NCBI GenBank assembly: GCA_963575745.1 | Contig: CAUYUJ010000004.1 | Location: 62,001-126,000 of the forward strand | Source: Prorocentrum cordatum | Taxonomy: Eukaryota | DNA length: 64,000 bases | Reading direction: 5' to 3' | Part shown: piece after piece, positions 556-28,399 of the stretch | Numbering within the stretch: the first letter of the stretch is position 1 | How the letters are laid out: the number at the start of each line of letters is the position of its first letter | Notes under the pieces: generated by a model | The model's input: only the letters and a program-made list of their open reading frames with translations | Database searches by the model: none | Told to the model about the DNA's origin: nothing | Made by a program: the position numbers and the translations under genes

Positions 556-1810
556 GGCACGAATCCATTTGAATAGTATGGGTTTCCGACACCCTCCTCG
601 CTCAGACGGGGCTTCCCTGGAGTGGTGGGAGGGGCACGAAACCATGAAAATAGTATCAGGCGGGCTTCCTTGGAGGGGTGGGAGGGGCACGAAACCATGT
701 AAATAGTATGGGTGTCTGATGCCCTCCTCGCTCAGGCGGGGCCTCCCTGGAGAGGTGAGAAGGGCACGAAACCATGTAAATAGCATGGGTTTCCGATACC
801 CTCCTCGCTCAGGCGGGGCCTCCCTGGAGAGGTGGGAAGGGCACGAAACCATGTAAACAATATGAGTTTCCGATGCCCGCCTCGCTCAGGCGGGGCCTCC
901 TTGGATGGGGTGGGAGGAGCACGAAACCATGTAAACAATATGAGTTTCCGATACCCTCCTCGCTCAGGCGGGCCCCCCCTGGAGGGGTGGGAGGGGCACG
1001 AAACCATTTGAATAGTATGGGTTTCCGATGCCCTCCTCGCTCAGGCGGAGGCTCCATGGAGGGGAGGGAGGGGCACGAAACCATGTAAATAGTATGGGTT
1101 TCCAATACCCTCCTCGCTCAGGCGGGGCCTCCCTGGAGAGGTGGGAGGGGCACGAAACCATATAAATAATATGAGTTTCCGATACCCGCCTCGCTCAGGC
1201 GGGGCCTCCCTGGAGGGGAGGGAGGGGCACGAAACCATGTAAATAGTATGGATTTCCGATACCCTCCTCGCTCAGGCAGGCCTCCCTGGAGAGGTGGGAA
1301 GGGCACGAAACCATGTAAGTAGTATGGGTTTCCGATAACCTCCTCGCTCAGGCGGGGCCTCCCTGGAGGAGTGGGAGGAGCACGAAACCATGTAAATAGT
1401 ATTGGTTTCCGATGCCCTCCTCGCTCAGTCGGGGCCTCCCTGGAGGGGTGGGAGGGGCACGAAACCATTTGAATAGTATGGGTTTCCGATACCTTCCTCG
1501 CTCAGACGGGGCCTCCCTGGAGGGGTGGGAGGGGCACGAAACCATCTAAATAGTATGGGTTTCCGATACCCTCCTCGCTCAGGCGGGGCCTCTCTGGAGG
1601 GGTGGGAGGAGCACGAAACCTAGTAATTAGTATGGGTTTCCAATACCCTCCTCGCTCAGGCGGAGGCTCCCTGGAGGGGAGGGAGGGGCACGAAACCATG
1701 TAGATAGTAATTACGGGCTTCCGACACCCTCCTCGCTCAGGCGGGGCCTCCCTGGAGGGGCGGGAGGGGCACGAAACCTAGTAAATAGTGTGGTACTCCG
1801 ATGCCCTGCT
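556..1810. repeat. 77-bp tandem repeat, about 17 copies
   Basis: Unit ggcacgaaaccatgtaaatagtatgggtttccgataccctcctcgctcaggcggggcctccctggaggggtgggagg recurs at ~77-bp spacing (556, 633, a short unit to 686, 763, 840 ... ~1768); no unique spacers. Confidence 0.95.
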
Positions 1811-1819
1811 CGCTCTTGC

Positions 1820-2240
1820 GGGTATGGTATGGTAAGGTATGTATGGTATGGTGTTGTATGGGTAGTTCGGTATGGTATTGTATGGTATGTGTGGTATGGT
1901 ATTGTATCGTATGGTAGGTATGCAAGTGTATGGTAGATATGGTATGGCATTGTATGGTAGGTACGGTATGGTATGGTGCGGTATGGTATGGTATGGTACG
2001 TATGCTATATAGTATGGTTGGTATGGTATGGTATTGTTCGGTATTGTGAGGTATGTGTGTTATGGTATGGTGTGGTATGGCATGGTAGGTATGGTATGGT
2101 ATGGTATTGTTTGGTAGTGTGTGGTATGTATGGTATGGTATGGTATGGTATGGTACGGTATGATATGGTAGGTAAGGTATGGTATGGAATGGTAGGCATG
2201 GTCTGATATGGGAGGCTGGAATGGTAAGCATGGTATTGAT
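1820..2240. repeat. Degenerate (TATGG)n pentanucleotide microsatellite
   Basis: ggtatggtatggtat runs throughout. Confidence 0.95.
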
Positions 2241-2899
2241 ATGGGAGGCGGGAGGCGGGAGGGAGAAGGAGAGGCTTTTCTGGGAAAACAAGAACCCCAC
2301 TCAGGATGTGGGGAAAAAACACATCAGCTTCCCGGAGCTCCGTCCTAGCAGCCACGGGTCTGCCAGCCTTCGCCTGGGGCTTCCTGAGAGGTTCACGCTG
2401 GTGCTGCTCCACGCCTGCAGCGGCGGGCCAGACGACTGGCTCCCCATCGTCCACAGGCGGCCGGGGGGCGCCCGCCGCTCTGCCCGCAGATCGGCCCACG
2501 CCCCCGCCCCCCCTGGTTCCTCGTGCTGTCGCTCTTTCCTGCTCACTCCTCGGGTCTCTTGACGTCTCGCCGTGTCCCTCGGTGTGTGCGCACTCAGGAC
2601 TTTGCGCATTCTGACCGCGCTCCGCCCTCTTCCGCCCGCTCTTCTCCGCCTGTTCCCCCTGAGGTGCCGATTTCGCTTCCGGAGTGCCCCTCCCGTCGCT
2701 CGCCGGGCGTCTGACCTTTCTTGCGCCCGCTGCCCAAACAAGTGCACGGCTAGCACCATGTGTGGACGAGCGTGGAGCATTCCCATGCCGACGTTGGGCG
2801 AATGCGTCCCTAGTCCCACGTCTGTGGTTCCTCCTGCGCAACTCCCTGAGGCGCAAGCATGAGTTTGTCTGAGCACCTTTTGGTTTTGGAAGGGTGCCA

Positions 2900-5800
2900 G
2901 GCACCTTTCAAAAAGAATGCTCGGGAAGGGTTATTTATGGGTTACCATTTACACTCAGGTGGACGTTGGTCTGGATATTACCTTGTCTTGGATACGGCTA
3001 CATACGCCAAGAACCCAGACGGCGACCTGTGTCACGTACACAGAGTCAAAGATATCATCATCCCCGACGGCAAGTTCACCTCCCTGTGAAAGACGGGACC
3101 CTGCGACATCACAACCCCGAGGCACACGACGAGGTCAAGGCATCTACTTCTCGCCCCTTGGGCGACAAACCCATACCCGACCTTCCACTTGCCTACCCAA
3201 AGGAGTGGGATGATCCATTTATGATGACGATGGACGACAACATCGCTGATACTCACCCATCGGCCTCCGAGGTTGCTGCGCCGGCACCGGAGCCCGACTA
3301 CTGGGAACAGCGTGGATATTGCGTCATCCGACACATCCGTACTCCACGCAGAAAAGTGTTCATATCAACAGACGACGTTATGAACATACCTGTACCTGTT
3401 GATCAGCTCGATTTAACACGAGACTTCGAGACGACTTCTACCTTTGATGGAGAAAGTGTCTTTCGCGATGTTGGAATGGTGTTAGCGCCACAGAGCACCG
3501 AGAACTGAGCGAGCCTTGAACCGGCCTGGTTCGATTCTATGAGCTCCCTAAAATGTTGCCTGACGGCAAAATGGTGGTCCGCGGACGCGAGACCCGCGTG
3601 CAGACTACTACGCGTCCAGACAACATTCTTCCCGAGCATTGGAAGACCTTATCTCGCGGACAGCAAAGGAAGGATATTGAGTACGCCGAAGATATCAAAC
3701 AGGCTCGTGAGACTCGTGAACGAGCTGCACTTCGAGTGTGGACCCGACAGGACAAACAAGCTACAAATTTCCGTGCTACTACAGCTGGTGGACACACATG
3801 GAATACCGTGGAACGACGGATTACTTTCGATACGGACAGCGGCGCTGTCATTCGTGACGAGGACGTCGAGGGCGTGACCAACAAAGAAATTCTGTATGCC
3901 AAACTACCTGGTGGACCACAGCCCTCTGGAGTCGCACGTGCTCTGGTACTTGTTGACAGTGAGGGGAGCGACTTCGGGGCCGTGAACCCGCTCACACGCA
4001 AGTTCACCCCGTCGGTGGCAGTGCCCACCATGCCACGTGGGCCGACATACACACCGGCACACAGAGATAATATTCCTGACTCACCGTGGGCACGCCCAGC
4101 CCTTGTTACCATACATTTGAGTAAGAAAGAAGTTGCCGCATAACCACGTGCACAGGAGGCCCTACGCAAAGAATACGAGCGCCTTGAAAAGAAGCAAACA
4201 TGGATGTTGGAGACTGCTGCTGAAAAAGATGATATTGAGTCGCAGGCGATTCGGACTGGGAAGAAAGTTCACTTCTTCAACATCTTGGAGCTATCTTCAG
4301 TCAAACATGAAGAACTTCCTCCTGAACTACGTAAGTTCAAGGGCCGAGTGGTGGTTCAGGGCAAGACCGGCAAAGATGAAACTGGCTTGGCCGCCATATT
4401 CGCCGATGCCGCATCCAGTGCGTCGCATGTCGAAGCATCCAAACTTTGTGATGCTACCGCATTATTGCCAAAGTATGCGGGCGAGCAGAGCGACGCACCT
4501 GTCGCATACACGCAAGCATTGCTATACGGAGACGGAAGAATCGACCCAGTCGATACGTGGATTACCATGCCCAAGTGGCGACAACCTGCATCTTGGTCTA
4601 AATGCAAGAATCCCGTGCGCCGATTACGATTGGCACTATGCGGGCACCCTCTCGCAGGTGTCTTTTGGGAACGAAAGTGTCGCACGTGTCTGGAAAGTGT
4701 TGGATTTGAGCCCATCCCAGGCTGGGAATGCGTGTGGAGACACAACAAACTGGGATTGATACTTTCAGTATACGTGGACGACTTTAAACTAGCAGGACCA
4801 GCCACCAACCTACAAGCCGGCTGCGATCATATCCGCAAAAGTGTTATTGATTTGGATCCGCCTACCCCATGCTCTCAATACCTTGGCTGTGGACAACAGG
4901 CAGACGATGTACCGCAGAACGTATTCGACAAAAGAATTTCTACCATTCGACCTATGTTGCCTGCCTACAGTGACAAATCATATCATACAGCTAAACAAGT
5001 TCGTGGAATACGACATGACATGCTTGGTTTTACTGATCAATGTATTGAGCGCTACCTGGAGTGCGCCTCCAAGCGTACCCATGGGACAGGGTCACGTCTT
5101 AAACTGTCTGACTCGCCGAGGGCTTCGCGATCCAATTCGCCTAGCTCATCCGGGTCGGTCGTGAGACCCACTAGCGCACTCAACGCGCGGTCACGATCAT
5201 CCAGCCCAGCTGGATCGGTCGACAGACCTTCCACTACGACACAATCCACGACAGTCACATATGATGACCTACCCGACGCGGAGACTCCTGGCATAGAGGG
5301 CACCTCCTTTACCGAGTCCGACTACTCCGACGAGGGTATCCTCGGCCAGGACGCGGCGAGTGTACTGATGAAGATTCTCTATCTGGCACGCTGTTGTCGT
5401 TTCGATCTTTTACATCCAGTATGTATGCTAGCCAGAGAAATTACTAAATGGAATACCACGTGTGATAAACGCCTTCATCGGCTGAGATGCTACATTAAAA
5501 CGACGCGCACCCATTGTTTACATGGGTGGATTGGCGACCCTTCAGACCAGCTATCCATCATGCTTTTCACTGGCGCCTCGTTCGCCGATTGCATTACCTC
5601 CTCCAAATCCACTACCGGTGTCTTCGCGGCGCTTGTTGGACCCAACGCGTTCTTCCCGGTCAACGCCGTGTGCAAGAAACAAACTGTCGTATCGCACTCA
5701 TCCACAGAGTCCGAGATCGTTGCTCTTGACTCGGCGCAACGACTGGAGGGACTACCACTACTCTCATTCTGGGAGGCCGTGGTGGAGGTTGCCAACACAT

Positions 5801-6330
5801 GCAAAGTGAAGACTACTTGCATGGGCTGCCTGGGGCTCGCCGCTGCGGCGACATGCCCGACGCTGGCCGCCAAAAAGAAGAGGTGTGAGCCATCGCCTCG
5901 CAAGGCATCTCCTACACGGGTATCTTCTCCTAGCCGTAGGCAGCTACCGCTGAAGACGGAGCTACCTGTGCCTCCAAAGAGGCGCGCGATATCCCATGAG
6001 GGTGCCGTGCTGCACGTGGAACCAGAGCCCGCTCTGGAGAGCAGCTCTCCGAAAGTGCATCTCATCGTCCTCGAGGATTACGAGGCCGTGATCAAGATTG
6101 TCCAAAAGGGACGTGCGCCCGCACCTCGTCATCTACATCGTACTCATCGTATTAACTTGGATTGGATTTGCGAGACATGCCAATTCGATTTTTTTGAGCT
6201 CAGGCACGCAGGTACAAAAGAACAAATTGCAGATATGATGACAACATTTTGAGCCAAAGAAAGCAGACCTCTGGAGGGATCTATTGGAACACTCGCTCAT
6301 CTTTCCCGTTGCCCCGGTACAGTGCGCTCC
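2900..6330 (+). pseudogene. pol: Copia pol remnant: post-integrase segment, reverse transcriptase, RNase H (frameshifts and stops)
   Basis: GLFMGYHLHSGGRWSG (post-IN); KFKGRVVVQG, DAPVAYTQA, LRLAL(C)GHPLAG and SVYVDDFKLAG (YVDD 4771-4782); RNase H FT(G)ASFA..SKSTTG, KKQTVVSHSSTESEIVA, RHLHRTHRI, QIADMMT. Confidence 0.93.
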
Positions 6331-9300
6331 AAAGGATCCAAGGAGACCACTGCGAGGGCCTCAGAGGCCCGATGGTTTACCTCATGTCGCAGAACCTCCA
6401 AAACGGGATGGATGTCTGGAAATATGTAAGATATCACTTACCGACAAAGAAAAATGGGGCGAGGTAGGATCAGAATGCGGAGTCTTGTGTGTTGGACAAG
6501 CCAATCACGAGGGAGTATGTGCATGCATGTGCTATATCGGTGTTCCTGCTGCGGCTACCGATTCGCGAACACCTCGAGCGAGGGCACGTTCGCCGCACGG
6601 TGGACACCCTCGTCATCCTCCTTCACCACCGCATGGTACAGGGAAGTCTAGAACACTTATTATACGATCGTGCCGCAGCTGTTTTACCACTCGAGCGACG
6701 AAGCTTACCAGCATCTTGCTCGCTGCGCGCGAGACGCAATCAAGTGCGATCGGTTCTAACCCCGATCCCCCCATCTTCGAGATGGACTAGGCATCGCCGC
6801 TCCACCTCAACGGCTGGGCCATCGCCTACGACGCCAGCTACGACGCGAACGCCGAGGCCGACGACCGCGTGGGCTTCACGTGCCACGCTCAGACGGGTCG
6901 TCCTCGCGATCCCGAGGATGGCTTCACCTACGTGCATTATCTGCGCTTTGATCGAAGTGCAGAGTGTGATCTACGAGTGCCCGGCGAATCCACCATTGTC
7001 GAAGTTACCCGCTCCGCGCCCATCGACGCGACGAGTTGCATCGGCAAAGTTGTTGGAGGAGTCGGCGGCGACGCCCACTATGAATACAGTGCGACCACGG
7101 CCACGCCGTGGATGTCATTCATGAAGGCCATGTGCATGATCTCCAGCCTCTTCACGCGTAACTCTTCTGTGCGAGAAAACGTTCGTGGCTTACATGATCA
7201 CTTGCATGCTGTGATTCCAAATTCACACCACAAGTGCCCACCAATGGAGCTCGCGACAGTGGTGTTGAAGGCAGAGTGGATGATGATGCACAACGATTAA
7301 TCAAAAGTGGGCAGTGCATTTCTTGGGCGATATTCTGAGGACAGCGTTCAGGGTACAAACCAGGTGTACAAGGACGGACTTTGTGCGCCTCACGATGTGT
7401 ACAATAATGGTTTGACGACTCCCAACTACGCTCCGAAACTTGATCGCGCTGCGATCAAACTACCCGTGCGTCCACCTGGCATGGCCAGGGCATCGGACAC
7501 TGCGGGCCCCCTCGGCCGCACTGTCGAGGATCACCTCGTCACCGAAGTGAGGGCGTTCTCCGATATCCACCAGACAAGCGAATTCCGCCGCAAGCTCAGC
7601 ACTTGGTTGACCGCGCGCGGAGGATTTGGAGGCATCGGATCAGGCCCCAAGATGGTGGCAACACCATCCGATCACCAAGGCGGCTGGAAAATCCTCCCAG
7701 AGTATGACGAGAATAATTGGCAGCCATACGAGGAGGGATCTGTGCTCGCAGGAGGAACGCCTACCATGGAGGGCCCTGGTCTTACCCCTGATGCTGCCGT
7801 TGACCCGCTCGAGCTGGCACAAGCAAAATACAGCGCGTTTTGTGGTGGTCGATTGGTTTCTATTCTTCTTTCAGACAACGGATAGCCTGGGATCATACAG
7901 GAGGACCTGTGACTTCTCCTTCACCATGCCTTTGACCCGCCAGGGCACGCATACAAATGGACAAATTTGTATACGGATTCCACGTGGATCATGCATCCCA
8001 GGAAAGGGTCCAAGGCCGCCGCGCACAAGAAGTACCCAAGCTACGGCATTGGCGAGCTCAACAGCCCACAGCAGCGAGATGCCCTCGCCAAGGCATCAAA
8101 TGTTGGCCTCGTGCTTCTATTTATGCCGTGCCTCAACCGTGCAGAATGCATCGGCGGCGCCGCCCTCGAGCACTTGTCGACCGTTATCCGCGACGACATT
8201 ATGATGTGGGCATTCTCCTCTGGCAATTACAAAGAACGGTTCAAACAGAACGACGCGGCGATTGGCCAGGACTGCATTCTATTGCCAGAGGCTGGCGGCG
8301 ACACCCGCTGCGATCTGGCACACCTCCGCGAGAGGCCTGCGCAGGCACAGGAGAACCGTATCGCAGCTATCCTTGCATCGCATTTTGAGTCAATACTCGA
8401 ACAGCGCAACATGATCATCATGATCCGCGAGGCCAGAGGCTTATCGCTGATGAGCGACAATGCTTCCATGAAAGAGTGGCGTAAGTTGAATGAGCTCATA
8501 TGGGAATAATGGGCTAACGACTTTCCTGCATACGTGAAACAAAGACACTACTGCAGGGGTATCAACGCCATGGTGGTCTGGAGTGCAAGCGACATTGCGT
8601 GTGCTACTCATGGTCAGACCATGTTGGACGCCCGTCGCCATCAGGACCGCGCCCCTACCCTCGTGCGCGAGCTCATGAAGATGGACTGCGAGGGCGGCGT
8701 CCCGACGCTTATGCCAGTACATGTGAAAGTGGACTTATCACGTTTCATTTTCGTGATGCAGTACTTTCGTTGCCCCACCGTCATGGGGCCAGGCAAAGCG
8801 GCACAATGGGACGTACACCCAAACTTCGACTACCGCACGGGCGACCTGATCAGGACGATGCAAATGCGTTGTATTACAGTTCTTCCCTCAGGCCACTGGA
8901 TTGATGCATGCGACAGAATCACGCCTGAGGCTTGGCATTCAAAACAGAATAATCACAATCTGGCGACGATCGCGACTCAGTTTTGTGATGCAGTATGTTA
9001 CCGCAACTTCTGTGCATTGATCCAGTCATTATCATCACAGCCTTATCCATGCAGACCTCCTATCCTGACTCCAGTCACGGACGCGCAGGCCTACACCCAG
9101 GCCGCAGAGATTATGGAGGCTCTTCAATTTCGTGAAAAGATGACCAACGAATGGAAGAGGAACCACAGCCTCACGACGCTGATGACTCAGACTGCAGGAG
9201 AGATGGCCCATTGTGCCTGGATGGCATCTTGCGCCAGCGGTACTTTGCCGGAATCGATGCCGTTGGCAACAAGCGATCCATGCATGCCCATCCCTGGACT

Positions 9301-12300
9301 CGCAAAAGAGCCACCAGCGCCGGATCCGACAAGAGCTATTCCTGCTAGCGATCCATACGGTGATGCATACGACGAGTTGTTCAACCATCTTCTCCTTCTG
9401 ATCAACGAGTACCCTGGGGCGTTGGCATCTTGGGAATCAGATGAGTACAAGGAGCTCTTTCACCCCAAAATCGTGAAATACACTAAGGATGCACACGCTG
9501 TTACTTGGGTCGTGTACGAGCAGTTCCTGCGCCAGATTAACGACCTGGACGGCGATGACGACTCGACAAAATCACGCATCATTGCAGAGCGCAACAGATT
9601 GTGCCCCCATCGTGTCGGTCCTCGTACTGACAACCAAGATACTATTACAGCATGCAAAGGTTTCTATACACAGAACGCCTTGGATCGTATTGCATTGGGA
9701 CTCACGGCCGACGCTCCAACTACTGCCTTCGGCGCGTCGCCTCCAGACGGCTCCGCGGCCGCTGGGGCAGACCAGCAGGCCGAGGACAGGCAGCCGCTAC
9801 CGCCAGGCCCACTGCCTGATCCACTGCCGCCAGGCCCGCAGCCGATTCCTCTACCAGAGCCATTGCCGCCTGGCCCGCTTCCGATTAGCACGCCCGCTGA
9901 TCCATTGCCACCAGACCCGCTACCGACAGCCGCGTCAGTCCCGGTCCCCGATGACGACGCTGATGTGGAGGCGGCGGAGCTGGAGGCAGCTCCTGCTGAC
10001 GACGGACCTTCTCCTGGTCAGCAATCGGATACGGTATGCATACTGTCGTGGCAAGACTGTTGCGAGCGTTCCTTCCATGAAGACACCAGCCAGATCCCGA
10101 CATTCGACAATGCGTGCACCCCTCGTGAGTACAAGCTTCAAGCAGGTCACGCGGATGATCATCCATACGTACCTCCTCCGTTGCGGGGCACGTCCGCGAT
10201 CAATGGCATGGCTTGCTTGCAGGACGATGATTGGACGAGCCAATTGTCATGCGACGATTGTGTGATCGCCCATGCGCCTGACACTGTTCAGTCTGGTTGT
10301 TTCCCAGAGTGGAAATGGATATCACTCCCGCCGTACGACGAGGCACGCTACGGACCCGAGCTGCTCGATGAGTGGCTTGGAGATCCTGTTTGGATGAGCA
10401 AAGACATCACGACCGTGCTACGTCGCGAGATCCACTACAAAAAGTTCCATATTGACCAATTCAATGATCGACGTGTCAACATATGGCCGAACTCGGCACA
10501 GCATTCTTGGAAGATTCCCAGCAATTGGCAATCATTCCAGGACATGGTTCAGTGGAAATTTCAAGAGCGTCGTGGACCCCACAACGGACAATCCACCGAA
10601 GCGGCCATGGCACACTTTAAGTACTGTGAATCAGACGGATACATGTGCTGGACTGATTACTACCCGATCTTCGTCATTCGTGCGTTCCAGAAGCACATTG
10701 GCCCGTAGCAGAACCGGATCGAGATATATGCCAAACCAGTTTCCGACGGGAGCGATCCCAGTTGCGTCGATTGGAACAGCGTTATCGTTATCAGATGCGT
10801 TGGAGGCCACAGTTGCGTCAGTCCGACTCCACCACGGCGCGACACTTCGTGCCTGGCGAAGCATCCTCAAGTCAGGGATTATTCCAGGCTATGTTGATCC
10901 GTCTTCCCAGAGAGACAAACATTTTCGAGGATCACCACGCGCGGAGGCATTCTTCAGTTCCAGTACCTACGTGCAAAACGTCAAAATGAATCCTCTCACC
11001 TCGGTACAATCGTACAAGTTCAAGCACTACAAGAACGAGGTGGAGCTGGTAATCGACATGCATATTGCCACAAAGGCTGGATGCAGATTTTGGCTGGGAG
11101 CACAGGGCGCTATCATGACTGAGGATGGGGTTCCAGCCGCTGCAGTACTCGCCATTCGCCGTCTCACACCACGCAGCGAGAATGGCAGGCAGATATGGCC
11201 AGAAGGCACTACGTGGGTTTACCCGCCACTGGCTGCGAGACAACCATTGAGCAAATACGAGATTTGCGCTGCTCCTCCTGCGACAGATACAATCGATGAT
11301 CCTCCTGGGATTGCCCCAACTGGCAGGGCCTACGACACGGCTCAGCAGCCACAGACACAGCCCGCCTCAGCATCATCGGCCCAGCGGCCAATCGCCCCTC
11401 AGCTGGGGGCGACCCCTGCTGGCCACACAGCTGACGCTGACGCTTTGGATGAGGCCATGGTCTGTGCGATGGTTAACAGTTGCGGGCACAACACACAGGA
11501 TAAAGAACGGTTGATAGCTATCTCACATTGTAGAGAGGCCCTGCGACCCAATACATCAGAGATTACACAGAAAGATTGGGATCGCCGGCCTATCTTCAAC
11601 GATGTCCGCATGGGGGACTTCATTATCGTTAAAAATTGGGGCTCAACCAATTGCTACCACTATGACAACCACTTCCCCAAGGGCGACTACAACACAAAGG
11701 TGCGTATGACCGAGGGTCATATTTATGGACCAGTCAGTCATTTCGGAGTATTCGAGAAGTTCTTTGCGGTACAAATACCTATTCTCAACTACGGTTTACG
11801 ATGGGTAAGCATATGGTATTGCGACAGAAATATGCCCCTCAAGGGCGTTGTCTTCGCTATGCCAGTACGTACCGGCATCAACCCGATTCACATGAATGTT
11901 GCACTTCAGGGTTCATCTTCGTGCAGCGATCAGATCTATAAATTAAAAAAATCTGGTGATCTACCATATCTTCGCATGCCGAGCATTGACAAACCACGTA
12001 TCCCACGCACGCCGACCAGACGCCCCGCTCCTCGGACACCCGATCCCGACGAGCCGGTGGCCACACCTGCCGAGGATCCCACGGCAGACGACGAGGGATC
12101 CCTACACGACGCAGGCCAATCCAACGACCCTCTGGTAACTGTCATTGTGGATATATCGACCATACCACTCACAGATGAGGAAAAAGCAGCCAACGATGCC
12201 ATGAAGGCGGATTTATCGGCAGAGGTTCACGCTGATGAGGACATTGGCTCGAGCATCCTTGATAATATCATTGACCCGCCAGAGGATTTCCTCAACTACC

Positions 12301-14504
12301 CCGACTACGAGCCAGAGGATAATACCAGATGGATATTGCAATCTTACGACCACCGCGTATACCGCTGGACGTCGGAGCTATTGGTCGACTCTCCAATGAT
12401 AAAGGTAAAACAAATTATTGAAGTACACACAGGTAGGGCCAACCTGGTGGTGGACAGGAGAGAGTCACACCTACGATTTGAGATGCAATTTTGTCCAAAA
12501 ACAGAGGCATACCAAATGGATTACGATCATACCCACACATGGGCACGCGACTTACCGATTTGCAGTGCATATTGTTTCTTCACAAAGATGGTTCACTACC
12601 TGGACCCAGAGATCATTGAAGAATCTACCACGGGCATCTTTCATTGGATTTCCAAAGTGTACCAAATCATATTGTCGGACAGCATCAAGGAGCTACGTGA
12701 TTTCACCAATGATGCTATCTATCAGAACCATCCTGCCTTCAATGCGTTGCGTGCTCTCTTCGCGCAATGCATCAGGACGCACGGCAACCCAGGCTTCCCC
12801 GTATGGAAGGAGCCGGTGGAAACGCCTGCCGCGCCTGACCAGGACGATCCAGGCGCCAACCAGGATATCCCCAGGGATCCAGGTAGCGTTGCTTCTGCAG
12901 CTCCCGACCAAGAGACCATGGTACAGATCATAGCCAATACAAAGAAGATTGACCGCAAGGGTGGCGATAACGAGGCCATCTTGCAGGCAGAGGCTACCCG
13001 CATCCGTACGGACAACGTACACCATGGTGATACTGATACTGCGGACACCGACACCTCCGGGTACGCAGGACTACCGGGGGAAAGATTGTCTAGGATCGAG
13101 ATCGAGGGGATCGGCCGATCGATCGCCTCCCGTCCGACCGCCGAGATCCATCGTGAGGCAATGAACCAAATCGGCCGTGGTCTTGCTTCCACTGACGGTG
13201 GCACCACCCGCTGGGGATCCTTTGGGCACCTTGCTATCTCTGGCGCCCCTGAAGAGATCCAGCATGATATAGCGCGATGTCGGAATTGCGATCGTTTTCT
13301 GTCTCTGGGAATCGTCACAGGTGACGGTACAATTTGTGATATCTGCTGGCAGTACACTGTCTCTGTAGGTACTACTGGCCAAGGTGGCGCCGTGGAGAGC
13401 GACCTGGCATACCTCCAGCAGTTGAACCACTGGATCAAGACGAACCTCTCCCAGGACGACATCACCAGGTATATGACAGATGGAGCGCGTGTCCACATGA
13501 TGGGCAAGCGCTCCATGGCTGGTCAGGAGAAGGATACCTTGAGGAGATTCACGAAGAAAGCTGCGGAGAGGTATCAGAGGTGGGTTAGCGCAGGCTCCCC
13601 TCCTGCACACATGTGCAGGCTGATGGGCGAGACTGAAGACGACAGACCTCTATACCACCCCTTCGCCAATCTCGTTCAGCGTTTCCTGAATGCCATGCGG
13701 TTCCGCCACCAAATGACAGCCGCTCGCACAGAGACTGGCAAAAAGGCCTTCACCATCGAAGACATGCGAGATGCTTGTGATATTCATGATCACAGCGTCA
13801 GGCTTGGCTTCGCTGGTCGGAGGAATTGGTGGTTGAACACTGGTAGACTCGACAGAGGCACTAGGCAAGAGCGTGGTCTTATCGCAATTGCCCTCCCCCG
13901 TGGGGGCGGCGCTTGCGAGAAAGTCACGCAGCGCAAGCTTGCCGCGCTGGCCTCCATCGAACCTGCCATGGAGCCTGCTAATCAAAGGGGGGCGGGTTCA
14001 GGGATTAGAACCGATCCGATCGACCCCGACGCACACTCCTCACATTCTTTTGGCGCCATGGAGCCGCGGCAGCCGCGGCGCCCGCCGCCGCCGCGCCCTG
14101 CCCGTGGCGATGCTGATGGATCCCGCGCCTCTGGCGCGCAGGATGACATGCCCGCTGGGCCGCGCGGCGCCGCCGCGCAGCGGCAGAGCAGCGATGCCAG
14201 CCGCAGACCAGCAACGTCTCCTCGTGCCAAGCGGGCGCGTAGGACAGAGGACTACGCAATGTGGTGGCGCAAGAACCTGGAGGAGAGCCAGTGGGGCCCC
14301 AGGTACTGGGGCTACTACGCCAAATGCTGGATGTACATCGCGGACAACAACGACGAGTTCGTGCACGTCCGCGACTTGCTGCGCAACGATAGGTTCCCCA
14401 ACTGGACCCCCAGGACACCCTGGGAGACATTCGCGACGAGCTATGTCGCGGATGATGGCCACCGGGCGTGGGACCAGAGGTTCTACGCGAGAGGCGACGC
14501 GTAG
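6284..14504 (+). pseudogene. ~2,700-codon extension downstream of copia RNase H, broken by a few stops and one frameshift near 10705
   Basis: ORFs 6284-6790, 6869-7300, 7307-7885, 7967-8509 and 8534-10708 share one frame separated by isolated stops; 10452-14504 continues in another frame. The first frame carries a plausible RNase H tail (KADLWRDLLEHSLI). Protein-like composition, with Pro-rich repeats (~9794-9930) and a CxxC..CxxC motif (~13278-13347). Confidence 0.75.
10394..11162 (+). pseudogene. Tpt1/KptA-like RNA 2'-phosphotransferase (ADP-ribosyltransferase fold) domain inside the copia extension
   Basis: N-lobe MSKDITTVLRR (cf. SKxLSxxLRH) and VIRAFQKH (cf. IRANQGH); C-lobe LHHGATLRAWRSILKSGIIPG (cf. 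HGTxxxxWxxIxxxGL), RAEAFFS and EVELVIDMHIATKAGCRFWLGAQGAIMTEDGVP (cf. IxIDxxxAxxxGxxFxxSxNGVxLT). Order matches the family; split by the frameshift near 10705. Confidence 0.75.
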
Positions 14505-15275
14505 TTTAGTCGGCCGCGAGGCCCGCCGCTCGATTGGCTGAACTTCATCTTTATACAAGTTCGCCTCGAGCAGTGATTAACAATGTAATTTTAGGCCACT
14601 TCACTATCCAAGAAAAGTGGCCACACTCACTGTGACACCCGAGGCAGACTCCTAAGGAGCACCGCCGGGGGGAGTAACCAATTGCAGAATTTATGTTTGC
14701 AGCTTTTCGTGCTTGTCAACACGACTTTACGCATGGCCATGTATTTACTTTGACATTTATACGTGTTCCTTAACGCGATCGCGTTCCTCAACACGACTTC
14801 ATAATACGCATTCTTGTTGCTTCTTTTTTACAGTATATTTACATTGCGTTGAGAATGTTCTGATGCCCAGCTCTAGTTTGAGAGCTGGTGGCAACACCTA
14901 CCGCGCTCAGGCGCGGCAGCTTCTGATGTTGCTTTAATTGATCAGATCCCCTTGCTCCGCCCACCCGTGTCTCATTCTTCTCCGCCCTCGAGTGCCGAAG
15001 CGTTTTTTGGGGGCGCACCGAGGGGGCACCAAAGTGTGCTTGGCGAAGAAACAGGGACCCTGGGTGTTCCTTCTTGCCCTTACTTGCCTAATCGTGACAG
15101 CCTTGTGCTACGTTTCCTTTTGAACACCGCTGTCATGATTAGGACGCAGCTGATGCTATGTAGATTTCACGCTCAGCTGCCTCGCAATGCTGAGGATTTG
15201 AGGAGTAAAAGGGTGACATGTTCTTTTCTCCTGTTCCCGAGCCCTGCCCTCACGGGCGGGATTCGGGACGGGGGG

Positions 15276-15426
15276 TGTGAATAGAACCCGTGTAATACCC
15301 TCATATATACTCCTTATCCTCACCTCTCCTGCGCCTGGCCGTTTGGGCTCAGGTATTGGATTCGATCGATCTGACCTTTGATCGTGCAGGAGGAAACTAT
15401 ATCCATCTTTCCCTCCTTTCCTCTAC
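15276..15426 (+). repeat. Candidate 3' LTR of the giant copia element
   Basis: Starts TG right after the purine tract 15265-15275; contains tatata (15304-15309) and an SL-like motif (15338-15355). Ends ctctac rather than canonical CA, and no partner LTR is in the window. Confidence 0.45.
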
Positions 15427-18199
15427 CGGCGGATCAGGGGTTCTGCGCCTTTGCACTCTAACCCCACGCACAGGAATAGGAAGGTGTGGCGCGCGGCGCT
15501 GCGAACGGGAAAGCGAGGACCCGAGCTTCTAGGACGGCTGCGGACGAACTTGACATGTGAGCCGGCGTGGGCCCCAAACAGCGAGTTCCCGCAATCTACG
15601 TGGTCCAATCCAAGTGGTGCAATCAATGTTGCGCAATCCAGGTGGTGCAATCCATGTGGCGCAACCTATCTGGTGCAATGCAACTCACTGCAGAGCAGTG
15701 CGGAGCAATGCAAATCGAAGCAGTGCAACGCAGGCCAAGCTTATAGGGCGGCCGTGGACGAATCCGACATGCAAGCCAGCGTGGACCCCAAACAGCGAGT
15801 TCTTGCCATCGACGGCAGGCGCACTCTGCCAGCTCGAGAGCTCCACTTTCTCGCAGCCGCCCGCCCCCAAGGGGAACCGCCCCCTGCCGGGAGCCCCCGG
15901 CCGGCCGGCCGCGCCCCCGGCCGCAGCCTCCTCGGAGGCCATGGAGTCGAGGCCGCGCAGCAGCTGCGAGGCTCGAGCGAGGGCCCATGTGACCGTTTTT
16001 TACGGTCGGCGCGGGCCCTCGCAACCCCCTTCGACCAAAAAATAAACGAAACCACCCCATCTACAGCCTTCCATGTTGCACCACGGCCGATCGGGCACCG
16101 CAGCGTATACCACGCAAAAGCCCACGCCGGCTTTCATGGTATGTGCTGAGGCCCGTGGAGCCGTTGGTGGGGTGGTGTCGGTTGTTTTCTGGTCCATCCC
16201 ACCCCCCCCACAAGGAGTAGATGTCGGTTGTTTTTGGCGCCTGTTTCGAGCAGGTGGAGTCTCCCCCATAGGACGCACGCTTTGCAAACGGTCGCATTAA
16301 GCGGAAGTCCGGAGCCAGACACCCCCTCTCCCCCCTCTTCCGCCCAATGTCCAAACGCCGAATAAGAAAACGTTCACCAGGCGAAGGGTCCGCGTGGTGC
16401 CCTGGGGGCCTCCAAGATGGCAAGACGGGCGACGAGAGCCCCCCAAAATGGCAGAGCGGTCCCCCGACGCAGCCTCACGACGGCCCGGCAGGGCCCCCAG
16501 GCGGCCCATAACGGCTCCAAGAAGAGCCCCGGAAGCTGGCCAGGGAGGGCCGCTGCAGGGACCCACGACGGGCGAAGCAGGCGCCGGCCACGGCGGCCTC
16601 TGGAGAGGGCTCTCGCGGCGCGCGCGGGCCCAGCGCGGAGGCGGCCTCCGGGCTTTTCGGTCGCGAGCGAGCTTCGGTGGATGTCCGAGCGAGGTCTAGG
16701 TCGCGGGCCATGCCGGCCTTCAGCTAGGGCTCTCGCGACGCGGGCGGGCCACGGGGTGGAGGGGGCCGCCTGGCTCCTGCTCCGAGCGAAACACGAACGA
16801 GGTCCAAGCGACGCGGCGCCCCACCCCCCTTCAATGAGCCAAGTCCGAGGCGACAGATCGGTCGTCTGGCAGCTGCACTTTTCGAGTAGGGGATCGACTG
16901 CATGATTCAATCACCCCAAACCCGATTTTCTCGCCGAGTCCACGAGAATGCGCAACATGCCCTGCAGATCTGCGGAGCATCCTACGCACTTCTCGCAGCC
17001 GCGACGGAAAATAATCAAATTTGGGGTAAATCCACCCTGCGCGGTCAACCAGCATAGTAAGAATGGGCCAACTTTTCCAATGCTATTCCCAGTTTCTTGA
17101 AGCGTCGGAGGGGCGTCACCCCCGCCGACAGTCCCACGTCGACCCCCGTCGCGGGCAGCCACCGCGCGCCGAAGGCGCTCCGACCCCCGTCGCGGCGCGA
17201 CGACGAGGCGAGGTTGACCACCGTCGGGGGGGGGTACCCCTCCACCCTCATGAAGAAACCCGGAGTATCCTTGCATCCTTCCCTCCTCGGTCCATCCTTG
17301 GCCACTTCCGTTGGCCGCGCCCCGCTCGCAAAGCGCTGACATGGCCTTCCAGGACCCTTGCATCCTTACCGTGCGTTCTTATTGTACGGGTTGACTGTAG
17401 TCGATGGGTACGGTACGGTACGGTACGGTACGGTACGGCTCGCGTCCCGGCCCGCTTTGGGGCGGTCCTCTGGGAGAGGGCGAGCGCATGGGAGCGTACT
17501 CCCGCAGGAGAGAAAACGGATCCTGTAGAATGTGTCTCGGGTGAAACCCAGAGATCCGACGTCGTGATTTTTTCAATGCGGGGTCCCCGGAAGTCTCGAC
17601 CCATTCCCCAGGACCAGGTTTTCATCCTGAGTCGTTTCTTGACGGTCCCGAGGCCCGGCGAGGGCCTCTGGAGGCCGAAATGTGCGAAAAACCTCCATCT
17701 TCATTTTTCAATGCGTTGGATCTCTAGGAACAGGAAGGAGACAGGACTGCAGGCGAGCCCCTACTCGAACTGCCCCTCAGCAGATTTTTTCGCCACCCGG
17801 TCAGCCGGGCTCGAGCGCGCGTCGTGGGCGGCCCTCGGCGGCCCTCCGGCGGCCCCTCGCCAGCCCGGAGGCCGCCCGCCGCGGGCCCGACTCGGAGGCC
17901 TTCGGCGGCCCCGGGAGGGCTCCTCGGCGAGGGCGCGGCCCACCAGAGCGACCGCACCGCGGCGAGGGCACCGGCCGCGGCCGCGGGCGGCCGCCAGGCT
18001 GTCGGTGCCCTTCCGCAGCAGCGTCCGCGTGGTGGTGCCGTGTGCGCCGGTGCGGCGCGAGGAGCACGGAGGCCGTGCCCCCCGCCGCGCTTTTCGCCGT
18101 GGGGGCAGGGGGTTTTGCGGCAGCAGATGATGGGAGCCTGGTCTACCCCCTTGATTCCGTCTTTAGCGTCGGCCAGCGTCGAAAAGCGTCTGGGAGTCA

Positions 18200-18673
18200 A
18201 TGGCGTAGCGCCGATTTGGCGTCGACTAGCGTCGATTTGGCGTCGACTGGCGTCGATTTGACGTCGATCAGCGGCGATTCGCAGGAGCCGACAAGATGGT
18301 ATGGGAGGCTCCCATGAGTTGCCACCGAAGGGTCCTGAGGGAGAGGCCCGAGGAGGAGGTGGAGGAGGAGGAGGAGGAGGAGGAGGAGGACCAGTGTAAA
18401 CCCAAGAGTCATCAACGATGTTGGAATCAACCCTCCCTCCAAGCTCCCCCTGCATAGGCCCCTACAACGGTTCATTTCCAGAGGGAACTGCCTCGTTGGA
18501 AGACAACCGCTTGAAGACCCTGAAGCATGCCAAAACATGGTTCTCGGGATTCCAACGCCACGGATCAACCTGATTGTTGCGTCTTGACGATCCTGAATCG
18601 TGCCAGAACGGAGGAGGAGGAGCAGGAGGACAATGATGATGACGATGGTGATGATGACGATGATTATGATGAC

Positions 18674-18758
<85 letters not shown>

Positions 18759-18780
18759 GTGGTGGTGGTGGTGGTGGTGG

Positions 18781-18813
<33 letters not shown>

Positions 18814-19892
18814 GGAGGAGGAGGAGGAGGAGGAGGAGGAGGACCAGGTTAAACCCACGAATCATCAACGATGTTGGAATAAACCCTCCCTCCAATTTCC
18901 CTCTTCATAGGCCCCTACAACGGTTCATTCCCACGGAGGGAACTGCATCGTTGGAAGACAACCGCTTGAAGACCCTGGAGCATGCCCCAAAAATGTTCTC
19001 GCGATTCCAACGCCACGGATCAACCTGACTGTTGTGTCTTGACGACCCTGAATCGTGCCAGAACGCCACTCCTGGGACTTCAACGCAGCAAATCAACATA
19101 ACTGTTGCATCCGCACAATATTGAATCGCTTCAAGCCAGTGGGTGAGTCGCGGGGTGGGTCGCGGGGTGGGTTGCGGGGTGGGTCGCGGGGTGGGTCGCG
19201 GGTGGGTCGCGGGTGGGATGACGATAACAAACAACAGCAACAACAACAACAACAACAGCAACATCAACAACAACAACAAACACAACGCAACAACGCAACA
19301 ACGCAACACACATAATCTTCACTACGAATCCCCAGTTCAGCCACGCACCCAGGGACAATGAATGACCGTTCGGTCCCCTCATTCTGATTCAATCGCTTTG
19401 CTCATTCCGCTGGCCCGTACTGTGCCATCGTAGGCGTTTGCCTGCGCGTTCGTGGCCTCTTGGGGCCTATTGGGAGTCGTTTGGGGGCCTCTTGGGCTTC
19501 TTTTTGAGCCTCTTGGGGGCCCCGTGCGGCCTCCAGGGTGCCTCCTGGGCTCTCTTGGGGGCCTCTTGGGGCCTCCTGGTGGGGGCCTCTTGGGGCGGAA
19601 GACTAGAATTGGTGGTTCGTGGTCCCCCTGACTCTTTTAGGCCCCTCTTGGGGCCGTCTTGGGGCCTTCTTGAGCGATTTTGGGCGCCTCTAGGGCCGTT
19701 TTGGGGCCCTCTTGGACAGTATTGGGGCCCTCTTGGGCCGTTCTGGGGCCCCTTCGGGGGCCACACCCGATGAGATAGTGCCGATTTAGCGACGACGAGC
19801 GTCGATTTAGCGTCGACTAGCGTCGACTCGCGTAGATTAGCGTCGACTCGCAAGAGCCAACAAGATGGTGCGGGAGGCTCCCACGAGTGGCC
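18200..19892. repeat. Cluster of local direct repeats and microsatellites
   Basis: ~120-bp gtcgattt/gtcgact-rich unit at ~18205-18325 and ~19778-19892; ~220-bp unit at ~18389-18610 and ~18842-19065 flanking a (GAG)(GAT)(GCT)(GGT) compound microsatellite; 12-bp gtcgcggggtgg array ~19147-19217; (CAA)n ~19228-19310; ctcttggggcc-rich tract ~19455-19765. Confidence 0.85.
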
Positions 19893-20749
19893 GCAGAAGT
19901 CAGCGATGTGGTGCGATCCTTCTGTCCCATCTGCTCTGGCCTGGCGCGTGATGTAGCATCAGTTGTTCAACCACCCGCGCAGCAACAGTCAAAGGAGGAA
20001 GGTCCCCAGAACTCCGACAGGATTTTCTTGACAATGTGGACCTCCAGAGGTCTCGACACCTTCCTCGGGACATTTGCTTTCATTCAGAGTCTTCTGTGAC
20101 AGTGCTTGAGCTCAGTATGTTTCCCCGGAGGCTGTACAGCGTCAAACGTGGACTGCTTTGCTTCTTCACGATGCGAGGGGGTCTGGGCAGTTAGAAACGT
20201 CAGGATTGAAGTCGAATGAAGCCTCTCGCACTCGCAGGCTGGATCGGTGAGATGAACTCCTGGTTCGAGTACTCGGAGGACCGCGCGAACCATACTTACA
20301 CGAACACACAAGAGGAATGGGGATGTAGATACACGCCCTGTACAGGGGTGCAGACAGAGACAGGTCCAAGGAGAGAGCGAGAGTCAGGAGGGGACAGAAA
20401 CGCACAGGCACAACCAATCGCCAATCCCCTCGAAAATATGGGAAGATGTGGGAAGTGGGGGGGAAGACGAACACCCAGCAAGTCTGGGAAAATATAGGAA
20501 ATCTGGGACTTGTGCCTACTTATGTGTGCGACCCTGGGCCCCTTAGAGAGCGAGAGAGAGAGAGAGAGAGAGACAGAGCAAGAGAGACAGAGCAAGAGAG
20601 AGAGAGAGAGAGAGAAAGAGAGAGGGTAGCGCTGGGACAGACACGAGCAGCCATCTATTGGCATACTCAGCCAGCAGTGTGTATGCATGCGGTGGGGAGT
20701 GGCGGGTTGGGGTGGAGGTGGAGAAAGGGATACATACGCACATACATAC

Positions 20750-24318: not shown

Positions 24319-26350
24319 AGAGATGGGGAGCCCGCGGGGCAGCAGGGTGGCGAAGAGGGAGGAGGCGGCCACGTACTTCCTGGCATGAACGGCGATGGCG
24401 GCGGACGAGACTACCGACCGCAGGAAGAACCTCCCGGACGACAGGGAGGAGAGCAGACACGGGACATAGGTACTGATCCGTGGAGGGACGCAGCTGATGC
24501 TAGAGCTGCGACCTGGAACTGGTCGAATGGTCAAGCCTGGGGGAACTCGCGATATTGGAGAGGCTGGCCAGCTACCGACACCTACGCCACCAGGACGGTC
24601 GAGGCGGGCACGACGACCGATGACCTGGGCGTGTGGGACAGTTGGGGTGCGCATGCAGGGGCCCAGACGAGTGGGTGGCAAGATTGGCGAAGCGAGGACT
24701 GGTCGTACACGGGCTGGACGTCGCCGAATCGTAGCCGAGACTTTGGGCCGCCTTCTGCATGGCTGGGCTTCGACCACCTGGATCTGTATCGACACAATCT
24801 AAACGCATGGTCCCAGAGGACCGGCTACCAGGACTTCCAGCAGGCGGCGAAGGTGGTGGAGGCCTATCCCGTCGAGCTGCAGGCTAAGTTCATGGCCATC
24901 CGTTCGACCCTCGACGCAGCCGACGGGATTGCCAAGCTTCTCTCGCCCCTTTCTATTCTGAATGGAGAGCGCCCGGGCGACCGGGAACGAAGTGCACAGA
25001 ACTTGGCCTTGTTCGATCACATGATTCGCCGAGGAGAGACCCTCGCCGACTACGTCCCGCGACGGGACGCACAGATAGCCGAGGCTGAAGTACATGGACT
25101 GACGCTGCCGGACCCCGTCAGGGCGCGGTATCTGGAGGAAGGAGCGGCATTGACGAATCAGAATAAGATTAACCTCCGGACCATCACGCTGGGCCAGACC
25201 GACTTCGGGCGGCACTGCTGAAGTTGGACGTGACAGAGAAGCGAGTGCTGCCGGCGCCGCCTCCTGCTCCCTACAAGGCGTTCCCCGCCGAGGTGGAGGC
25301 CATCGAGGACTCCTTCTTCGAGGGCGACGACTTCGGGGACGAGCTCGAGATGGCGGAGGAGGAGGAGGAGGCCTTTCTGACGGCTCTGGAGACCCAGGAT
25401 CTGGACGAGCACGAGGTGTTTGACGTCCTGGCAGCGATCGTAGAGGAACGGTTTGGAAAAGAAAAACGACGCACATGGAAATAATCTCGGAAGCTCAAGA
25501 TGGCGAAGAAGGTGGACCGCGACTTCTTTGACCGCAAGAGAGCACGACCTGGGTTCAAGAGGCTTCTGGGCACGGATATCAAGGAAAGGTCTAGGTGCGC
25601 TAACTGTGGTGAGAAGGGGCACTGGGCGGACAGTTGTACCAGCCCCTATCGTGCCAAGAGCGACCGCCTGGCTGCCGAGAAAGACAAGCCCCGATCTTCG
25701 GGCACAGGCTTCTCAGCGACGACCTTCCTGTTCGAGAACGACGGCCGCGACGGATCCTTGATCAACTTCGCGGGCCAGGCTGGCTTTACTTCCGAGGACT
25801 GCCGCTTGACCAGCTACTGGGAGAAGTTCGTGATGGAGCGCGTGAAGGTGCCAGAGGACGTCGTCAGCTTCCTGAGCATGGAAGACGTCCCGGGCGCGGC
25901 GGCGCTGGTGGACGCCGCGGCGGCGCAGGCGCTGATCGGCAAGCCGGGCCTGGAGATCCTGGCCCAGGCGCTGCAGGCTCGCGGCTACAAGGTGAAGGTG
26001 GACCGCACCCCGGTGCGGGGAATGACGGCCTCCGGGATCGGAGGTCGCACGACGCCGATCGGCAAGGCCTGGGTCCCGGTGGCCATCGCGGGGTGCGGTG
26101 TCGTCGAGTTCCTGGTGCTGCCCCAGGCGTGCCCCCCGCTTCTCCCAGCACGCCTGTTGGAGATGATTGGGGCCAGCATCGACCTGAAGGCAAACGTCAT
26201 GACGGTGGACGAGGACGGCGAGAGGGTCGACCGTCCGCTGACCGTGCACCCCGCCGGCCACAGGTCCGTCGACCTCGTGCATCGCGACCCCCGGGAGTTC
26301 ACCCTGAGCGCGGGCCTGGTCGGCAAGTTCTCGATCGGCGACTTCTGCCT
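24313..26350 (+). pseudogene. gag: Copia gag, zinc knuckle and aspartic protease (frameshifted)
   Basis: Trp-rich gag N-terminus; CANCGEKGHWADSC (CCHC, ~25595-25636); protease ALVDAAAAQALIG (D-T/S-G/A-like, 25911) and PPLLP..LLEMIGASIDL. Confidence 0.85.
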
Positions 26351-26586
26351 GCGGCAGGGCCCAGGCCTGCCCGCCCGGCCTCCGGCCAGTGTGCGAGCAT
26401 GCTGTGGCGGTAGGCGTGAGGGGGGCAGCAGCGTAGGCAGCAGATCTTACTCATCCCCCCCCTCTCTCGTCGTCGCTCGGGTCTCGGGGGGCGGGGGTCA
26501 GCGGCCCAGCTCCAGCATGCAGCTCCTCTCGGCTCTAGCTACCAGATCCGAACGGAGCAGCGCGCCGACACCCGCCGGGGCTCGAG

Positions 26587-27666: not shown

Positions 27667-28399
27667 GCGACCTAGAGCCCGGCCTCCTGAGCGCCGAGCT
27701 GAGGTCCCGCCTAGGCCCAGTCGCGGCCCTGCCCGAGCACGTGTTTGCCCGCGACCTCGACGTTTACTGCAATCGTTTGGGGTTCAGATCAGGTTTCAGG
27801 AGAGATTCGAGGAGGGTTCTCGGTGTCTGGGACCTCGACCAGAAGAGGGAGGTCACTCGCGAAGAGGTCGTGGCGGCGAAAGGCTGGCAGCAAGTGCCTC
27901 TCCCTCGTGCAGGCAGCATTCGGTTTTTTACGGGCCTCGCGCTCCGCGCCAGCGGGGGAGGAGCTCCAGGGAATTCGATACCAGAAGGGGCCAGGTGGCT
28001 GGAGGTCAGGGACAGGTCCGGAGCCATTCTCGTCTCAGGACTCTTTGGAACCATCGGAGCCAGCGAGGCCGTCCAAAAGATAGGAACCGCAGGACGAGGC
28101 TCCTGTAGCGCGACGTTCTGGTGCGAAAAGAGCTCGAGCCAGACCGAGGAGGAGAGGAAGCAGCAGCAGGAGGAGCCAGCCAGAGGAAAGGAAAGCAGGA
28201 GGTTGATGATCATCGAGGAGGACCGCTTCGCGGCCGCGGCCCTAGATGGCCAGCTGAGCATCGCCCCTCCCAGGGCCACGATCCCCCGGCGTGTTCGAGA
28301 CGCTACCGCGCGTGCCTTAGATGGCCAGGGCCTCAGAGCGGCCCGGACCCTCAGGAAGCGCGAGCTCAAGAGGCTCGAGGAGCGCAGAGGCGGGGCGCT

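Follow-up and report, generated by a model that had tools for sequence, protein, structure and literature searches.

The 64,000-nucleotide stretch of Prorocentrum cordatum DNA analyzed here (contig CAUYUJ010000004.1, positions 62,001 to 126,000; hereafter the window, with positions counted from its first letter) raises the question of whether a copia-type retroelement carries a domain of the Tpt1/KptA family within its own pol reading frame. An earlier note, made from the letters of the window, had described a copia retrotransposon with a complete domain of this kind, located between ribonuclease H (RNase H) and a candidate polypurine tract (PPT) and long terminal repeat (LTR). Our analysis indicates that positions 2850–15550 are probably a dead, 5′-truncated copy of a high-copy copia-type element, the intact members of which would carry a Tpt1/KptA-type domain in an extension of pol. 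The homology and the architecture, which is unusual, appear well supported, the linkage to pol resting on one copy and on junction-spanning fragments. The features of the domain in the window are as follows.

10397..10825, plus strand: Tpt1/KptA-like N-terminal (RNA) lobe, with SKDITTVLR-R, an insert, TAG at 10706, QNRIEIY, and IRCVGGHS
10823..10826, plus strand: deletion and frameshift (frame 2 to frame 0), with an inter-lobe linker of approximately 19 residues gone
10827..11165, plus strand: Tpt1/KptA-like C-terminal (NAD+) lobe, with LHHGA, GIIPG, PRAEAFFSSS, and FWLGAQGAIMTEDGVP

Relatives of the domain were collected by searching 1.84 billion representative proteins in full with HMMER, the translation of 10710–11300 being the query. 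The scan returned 26 proteins at E ≤1e-3 (14 of them at E ≤1e-10), nearly all of which were short fragments; P0009, with 547 amino acids, was the longest relative of the C lobe. With the N-terminal piece as the query, a word-indexed search retrieved five proteins (P0027–P0031; 76–81% identity), and the stretch directly after pol retrieved three further proteins (66–70% identity). All eight of these N-lobe and post-pol relatives have the source name 'eukprot ... Pyramimonas_sp.', Pyramimonas being a chlorophyte genus rather than one of the dinoflagellates, to which the earlier note had pointed. By these labels on the nearest relatives, the element would probably have a marine chlorophyte as its host. 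No protein of 402–1281 amino acids matching the N lobe was found in the search with that lobe, and no confirmed relative locus emerged when contigs from metagenomes and viruses were scanned with profiles.

The pieces from the window and the relatives were combined into a family alignment of 27 rows, in which the fragments were added to a guide and the guide was then removed. This alignment was compared with that of 18 bacterial KptA proteins, comprising E. coli kptA (NC_000913.3) and 17 loci from genome contigs and two phylum-wide PF01885 searches. The comparison by hhalign gave a probability of 95.5%, a P value of 1.6e-8, and a score of 60.3 over 174 columns, and family columns 13–261 were aligned with KptA 7–181, showing that the match covered the entire enzyme in collinear order at approximately 12% identity. 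Against this score, the reversed template reached 11.7 and none of 30 column shuffles exceeded 8.2. The probability was 94.5% without the rows from the window and 92.3% with only 11 distant members, and a second hhalign run on MAFFT alignments gave 92.8% (E 3.9e-7; 112 columns; KptA 63–177). The C lobe alone also matched KptA, with a probability of 94.9% and a P value of 4.6e-8. Among Pfam families, PTS_2-RNA was the one matched by the largest number of members (5 of 20 at E ≤0.1), and its best match was to residues 1–228 of P0009 (E 2.8e-5, 24.7 bits, profile 61–177). The Tpt1/KptA profile match that the earlier note had proposed to look for was therefore significant in the profile–profile comparison and sub-threshold in Pfam.

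Several results weigh against this assignment. Every match to PTS_2-RNA, including the best one, lay under the curated cut-off of 26 bits, and 10710–11162 of the window reached E 0.0012 and 19.4 bits (profile 101–176 of 177). PTS_2-RNA was matched by none of six N-lobe sequences, Pfam returned nothing relevant for the N-terminal piece of the window alone, and a hidden Markov model built from the 18 KptA proteins matched single fragments weakly (best E 0.0017 in a set of 27). Compared by itself in hhalign, the N lobe was not significant, with a P value of 0.013 for the 27-row alignment and a probability of 0.4% (E 0.15) in the run on MAFFT alignments. In the PDB, no Tpt1 was found by phmmer with both lobes or by profile search, and the AlphaFold2 model of residues 1–228 of P0009, built on a 20-row alignment, had a mean predicted local distance difference test (pLDDT) score of only 44.

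The unreached curated thresholds, the insignificance of the N lobe on its own, and the want of structural support from the PDB searches and the model would all fit a resemblance that arose by chance or through composition in a long frame. We nevertheless consider such an artefact highly improbable in view of the P value of the profile–profile comparison and the low scores of its controls, the persistence of the signal in the second run and after removal of the rows from the window, and the collinearity of both lobes with the catalytic motifs all in the right order. In the full alignment, the N lobe occupied family columns 13–161 on KptA 7–94, and it was assigned on the basis of this collinear place and of its unique SK..T..LRH motif, followed by the K.R[IF] and IR..GGH motifs. 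The pattern SK.[ILVM][ST]..LR[HR] had a single match in all six reading frames of the 64-kb window, at 10397, and no match in 100 shuffles. Judged from these sequence comparisons, the resemblance to Tpt1/KptA at 10397–11165 is real.

Next, we focused on the catalytic motifs. As described in PMC6333775, the essential tetrad of Clostridium thermocellum Tpt1 consists of Arg18, His19, Arg68, and Arg121, which bind the junction 2′- and 3′-phosphates, and Lys66 and Arg68 belong to a K.RF motif. The corresponding residues of E. coli KptA, counted on the NC_000913.3 sequence, are R21, H22, R69, and R125. The family consensus keeps the Arg-His-Arg-Arg tetrad (in LRH, K.R[IF], and R.EAF) and the HGT motif for NAD+. 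The window copy keeps three of the four tetrad residues, the His being replaced by Arg at 10424. Its third tetrad residue is Arg 10715 in QNRIEIY, equivalent to K.R[IF], and its fourth is Arg 10938 in PRAEAFFSSS, equivalent to R.EAF[FY]S; the latter was set by ungapped spacing to R..VHLS, whereas hhalign chose a nearby Arg of a variable insert. The HGT position is occupied by HHGT or HHAT/HRAT in the relatives and by HGA in the window. The motifs HH[GA]T or H[HR]AT, R.EAF.S, and FW.G.Q.AIM persist in P0009, P0010, and P0013, whose identity to the window is only 34–42%, and the retention of these C-lobe motifs at such divergence would speak for selection while the family spread.

The two lobes in their proper order, as the earlier note had read them, were borne out by their collinearity with KptA, whereas one of the four motifs on which that reading was based had been misassigned. 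IRAFQKH (10676–10696) had been taken for the IRAxQGHS motif; hhalign places this motif on IRCVGGHS (10790–10813), and IRAFQKH belongs to an insert in the RNA lobe that is particular to this family. All peptides quoted in the note were found where it had placed them: SKDITTVLRR at 10397–10426, with CGC at 10424 for its second Arg; LHHGA at 10827–10841, with GCG at 10839 for its Ala; and the C-lobe peptide FWLGAQGAIMTEDGVP at 11088–11135. Its proposal that the ancestor had the canonical residues at the RH and HGT positions agrees with the relatives, given that LRH is present in all five (P0027–P0031) that cover the site and that the C-lobe relatives mostly read HHGT.

Two further departures count against an unchanged enzyme. 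The His of KptA VHLS is Phe or Tyr in the family (AF[FY]S), and the RH of G.RHG, given as an NAD+ contact (Rsl R137/H138) in PMC6333775, has no clear counterpart, so that activity may have been altered or lost. Together with the identity of only 12% to KptA in hhalign and an insert-bearing N lobe of approximately 140 residues, compared with 85 in the C. thermocellum enzyme (PMC6333775), these departures are what would be expected of a Tpt1/KptA descendant that is no longer a nucleic-acid 2′-phosphotransferase. Such a descendant could be a non-catalytic module binding NAD+ and RNA, or an ADP-ribosyltransferase with another target, for example protein. We regard this alternative as unlikely, since the family consensus retains all four tetrad residues and HGT, and members 34–42% identical to the window retain HGT and three of the four; this retention would be difficult to account for had the ancestral chemistry been lost.

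The window copy of the domain is a pseudogene with at least four lesions, namely a stop, a deletion with frameshift, a His-to-Arg change, and a Thr-to-Ala change. In LRH, the Arg at 10421 is present and the His is replaced at 10424; in HGT, the Thr is replaced at 10839. The TAG at 10706–10708 is in frame and corresponds to Gln in P0028, which is continuous in one frame across this site (...IRAFQKHIDPQKNRIAIYAKP...NSVIAIRCVGGHR). Past the TAG, the frame of the open reading frame (ORF) at 8510 carries on as QNRIEIYAKPVSDGSDPSCVDWNSVIVIRCVGGHSCVSP (10709–10825). An intron at approximately 10705 was considered and rejected, since only one TAG interrupts the frame, which is unchanged on its far side, and the relatives have Gln at that place. 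Between the lobes, P0008, P0009, and P0026 read in a single frame as ...IR..GG...V.P...PW.MGW..L.W.D.KYLHH.T..., whereas the window jumps from GGHSCVSP to (R)LHHGA in a different frame and without this linker. The presence of the linker in these three relatives indicates that approximately 19 residues were lost from the window by a frameshifting deletion near 10823–10826. The domain of the window, which had been called complete, is thus broken by the TAG at 10706 and by the linker deletion, and the frame join that had been placed at approximately 10705 corresponds to an in-frame stop at 10706, the actual change of frame lying at approximately 10825. As it reads, this copy cannot make an active enzyme.

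The second part of the question is whether the domain belongs to the retroelement. The parts of the element that surround it, including reverse transcriptase (RT), are as follows.

2850..3089, plus strand: possible remnant of a copia integrase C-terminus, in a short frame ...FMGYHL...YLVLD...VHRVKDIIIPDG
3520..6252, plus strand: copia-type pol frame (RT, linker, and RNase H-like end ...KEQIADMMTTF followed by the stop), with TAA at 4141 and YVDD
approximately 4333–4890, plus strand: RVT_2 match in Pfam (residues 64–249 against profile 33–206 of 244)
6242..6243, plus strand: loss of two bases that most other copies have, changing frame 1 to frame 2 (Logan contigs and P0033)
6245..10396, plus strand: extension part 1, approximately 1,380 codons, with stops at 6788, 7298, 7883, 7910, and 8507 and a Pro-rich linker near 9800–9950
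11166..14504, plus strand: extension part 2, approximately 1,110 codons, with W.YPPL...YE, a Pro-rich linker, CxxC...CxxC at 13278–13346, and TAG at 14502
14505..15550, plus strand: non-coding 3′ tail, repeated in the genome according to contig cover; candidate 3′ untranslated region or LTR

The RT matched RVT_2 with E 1.4e-4, and no other RT family was found at E ≤1. We take the pol end ...KEQIADMMTTF to resemble the RNase H end of copia elements, and the short frame at 2850–3089 presumably resembles the region after the integrase core of such elements, Pfam having no match there. The frames that connect these parts are largely open. Frame 1 had one stop in 910 codons over 3520–6249 (16–47 in the other frames), frame 2 had six stops in 1,527 codons over 6245–10825 (31–71 in the other frames), and frame 0 had no stop in 1,226 codons over 10824–14501 (22–55 in the other frames). 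The domain lies in the midst of this frame, separated from RNase H by approximately 4.1 kb and followed by approximately 3.3 kb more. It is therefore tied to the copia RT and RNase H, as the earlier note had held, by a shared strand and, allowing for decay, a shared reading frame; its placement between RNase H and a PPT/LTR did not hold, because the candidate PPT/LTR falls inside the open frame.

The junction behind pol was compared with other copies by placing Logan contigs (200–550 nucleotides long) from four runs, X1 to X4, on 1800–16500 at ≥80% identity. X1 may be the source of the window itself and hence is not independent, and it still shows many diverged copies. An additional CA behind 6242, which joins frame 1 to frame 2, was the commoner form in all four runs, with depths of 724 of 1335 in X1, 87 of 138 in X2, 38 of 38 in X3, and 49 of 73 in X4. 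P0033, a cluster of six sequences, contains the pol end and the extension in one frame (MMTKHLSSRKQIWRDLLE... / MMTKHLSSRKQIWRDLLELS...), and P0034 has Gln where the window has the TAG at 6788. The predominance of the form with CA and the one-frame junction of P0033 indicate that the frame change at 6242 is a lesion of the window copy. The ancestral element was most likely one frame of approximately 11.6 kb (2873–14504), in which the upstream remnant, RT, RNase H, approximately 1,380 codons, the Tpt1-like domain, and approximately 1,110 codons most likely followed one another in this order.

Some results argue against a single element with this order. The RVT_2 match scored 22 bits, under its cut-off of 31.6, and the window contained no gag, no protease, and no integrase detectable by Pfam (rve). 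No LTR pair was found in the window, in which direct repeats were sought over 1–22000 and 14505–15550 had no second copy, and no PPT was confirmed. No other copy spanning RT to the Tpt1-like domain was found among contigs of 200–550 nucleotides and database proteins of 46–547 amino acids. Neither part of the extension matched Pfam, NCBIfam, or the PDB, the PDB likewise gave nothing relevant for pol, a motif scan of both parts (Walker A, ligase K.DG, 2H, and others) gave nothing notable, and Pfam and NCBIfam returned nothing for all other frames of 2176–14501.

These results leave room for two unrelated repeats lying side by side, in which a copia fragment truncated at its 3′ side (ending at approximately 6250) abuts another multi-copy gene or element, to which the Tpt1-like domain would belong, the pair having arisen by chance fusion and been co-amplified. 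The occurrence of RT and the Tpt1-like domain together in the window copy only, the lack of LTRs, and the 4.1 kb without a known domain between RT/RNase H and the Tpt1-like domain would agree with this explanation, as would the summed contig depth, which is uneven along the stretch and which cannot rank the parts. Opposed to it are the predominance of the frame-joining CA in all four runs, the six member sequences of P0033 that read through from pol to the extension, the low number of stops behind the junction (six in 1,527 codons), and a composition that is uniform from pol to 14.5 kb; the guanine plus cytosine (GC) content is 0.52–0.56 over 4001–14000, compared with 0.58–0.73 in most of the remaining window. 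Based on these data, we consider side-by-side repeats distinctly unlikely and retain the reading of one element with the domain in its pol extension.

A motif, W.YP.L......(S/T).(Y/F/C)E(I/V), was observed at 11214–11267, after the Tpt1-like domain and before the Pro-rich linker, and it was also found in P0002, P0009, P0010, P0013, P0019, and P0022. This motif may mark the edge of a domain or be cut by a protease.

The contigs also showed that the sequence belongs to a dispersed multi-copy family, as did the many fragmentary protein relatives. In X1, 8,604 contigs were placed on 1800–16500, comprising 840 at ≥99% identity, 1,841 at 95–99%, 3,169 at 90–95%, and 2,754 below 90%. The three metagenome runs, two of which were labelled marine, contributed 788 to 1,234 contigs, and all 30 bins of 1800–16500 were covered in all four runs. 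The commonest differences between contigs and window were C>T and G>A, and transitions dominated. At the 3′ side, contig cover reached 15547 and dropped in 15548–16038. On its 5′ flank, the copy meets a satellite of approximately 77 nucleotides at 552–1830 (16 copies, 68–94% alike), and short GGTAT-like repeats adjoin it at 1820–2216; the satellite and these repeats probably mark the point of 5′ truncation. Because the copy is cut on its 5′ side by the satellite, the missing LTRs do not exclude LTRs in whole copies. An 80-nucleotide direct repeat of 80% identity (15521–15600 and 15735–15814, 214 nucleotides apart) was observed where the repeat cover drops.

If the domain belongs to pol as proposed, the pol frame of intact members would continue past RNase H for approximately 2,750 more codons. 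A strongly diverged Tpt1/KptA-type domain would lie in the middle of this extension, with a winged-helix RNA lobe containing an insert, followed by an NAD+ lobe of the ADP-ribosyltransferase fold. Functional copies would produce the domain as part of a polyprotein, and it would transfer ADP-ribose from NAD+ to a phosphate monoester carried by nucleic acid of the element itself. Both known Tpt1 reactions, namely two-step removal of a 2′-phosphate and one-step ADP-ribosylation of a 5′-phosphate, are described in PMC6333775, and each offers a route. By the first, the domain would erase a 2′-phosphate, left by an RNA ligase of the plant or fungal type, that blocks reverse transcription of the template or of the transfer RNA (tRNA) primer; we regard removal of such a mark from the RNA template or primer of the element as an improbable, if coherent, role. 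By the second, it would cap the 5′-phosphate ends of the RNA or complementary DNA (cDNA) of the element, and this capping seems to us just as improbable, the rest of the probability going to a different activity or to none. The roles proposed in the earlier note, namely end capping, primer processing, or a counter to host defence, would likewise be hypothetical. The broader proposal, that a copia-type lineage in marine green algae incorporated an NAD+-dependent enzyme of the Tpt1 type into a very large pol extension and kept it under selection, is a tentative one and somewhat doubtful. If true, the erasing of 2′-phosphate marks or the ADP-ribose capping of 5′-phosphate ends would be a step in the replication of the element or in its defence against the host, and the domain would be the first retroelement-encoded Tpt1, providing a handle on the roles of Tpt1 outside tRNA splicing.

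The remainder of the window contained other features. Close to its beginning, a frame of 987 codons at 25485–28448 on the plus strand, located in GC-rich DNA, matches the zinc knuckle family zf-CCHC of Pfam (E 1.2e-4, 22.4 bits, cut-off 20.8), and this frame may encode the gag of another retroelement. Eleven other long frames of the window showed no Pfam domain besides one weak match to DUF4834 below the cut-off. Extended runs of the trinucleotides GAT/GCT/GGT/GAG, together with a (GA)n run, were found at 18587–18867 and 20535–20636, and two repeats of approximately 130 nucleotides are present in two copies each, approximately 455 nucleotides apart, at 18350–19065.

The earlier note had known of no description of this architecture, and our search of the literature, outside which most subscription journals and Repbase lie, likewise found no account of a Tpt1/KptA domain in a retroelement; among co-mentions of PF01885, KptA, and 'retrotransposon', the family appears in domain tables only. 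A pol extension of approximately 8 kb with no recognisable domain apart from the Tpt1-like one is unusual in itself. To our knowledge, each known case of an extra enzyme domain in such an element has pointed to a step of the interaction between host and element. PMC9289625 regards it as a rare event for an LTR-type retroelement to fix an additional enzyme domain. Tpt1/KptA is widespread, and what it does apart from tRNA splicing in fungi and plants is described as an open question in PMC6333775, PMC6182162, and PMC12678800. A retroelement with its own Tpt1 would suggest that 2′-phosphate marks or ADP-ribosylated ends are of importance to reverse transcription, and it would provide a system in which this can be tested. 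Ty1, which is of the copia type, depends on the host debranching enzyme Dbr1, and this dependence is another link between this class of elements and 2′-linked RNA chemistry.

Compared with Tpt1/KptA proteins (PF01885; E. coli KptA and C. thermocellum Tpt1), the family of the window has the same order of two lobes, and the SK..S..LRH, K.RF, IR..QGHS-like, HGT, and F..s.NGVWLt..vP-like motifs are collinear in it. Tpt1/KptA is a free enzyme of 180–230 amino acids, whereas the family of the window lies in a polyprotein of >3,500 residues, is multi-copy and mostly decayed, and has an insert in its RNA lobe. With Ty1/copia elements (Pseudoviridae), the element shares a probable RVT_2-type RT with YVDD, an RNase H-like end ...ADMMT(K), high copy number, and decay by transitions; it differs in a pol frame that extends approximately 8.2 kb past RNase H. 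In gene order, RT is followed here by the RNase H-like end, and what lies upstream is just the presumed integrase resemblance at 2850–3089. The closest parallel in kind is provided by giant Ty3/Gypsy elements of Phalaenopsis, which, according to PMC9289625, carry an AlkB-type N6-methyladenosine (m6A) RNA demethylase that was kept through subfamily diversification, is encoded in a separate ORF, and has activity shown in vitro. Both are lineages of large LTR-type elements with an additional enzyme domain, the substrate of which is, or in the window is predicted to be, a chemical mark on RNA. The element of the window differs in that it is of the copia type, that its domain lies in the pol frame, and that the predicted reaction is an NAD+-dependent phosphate transfer rather than an oxidative demethylation.

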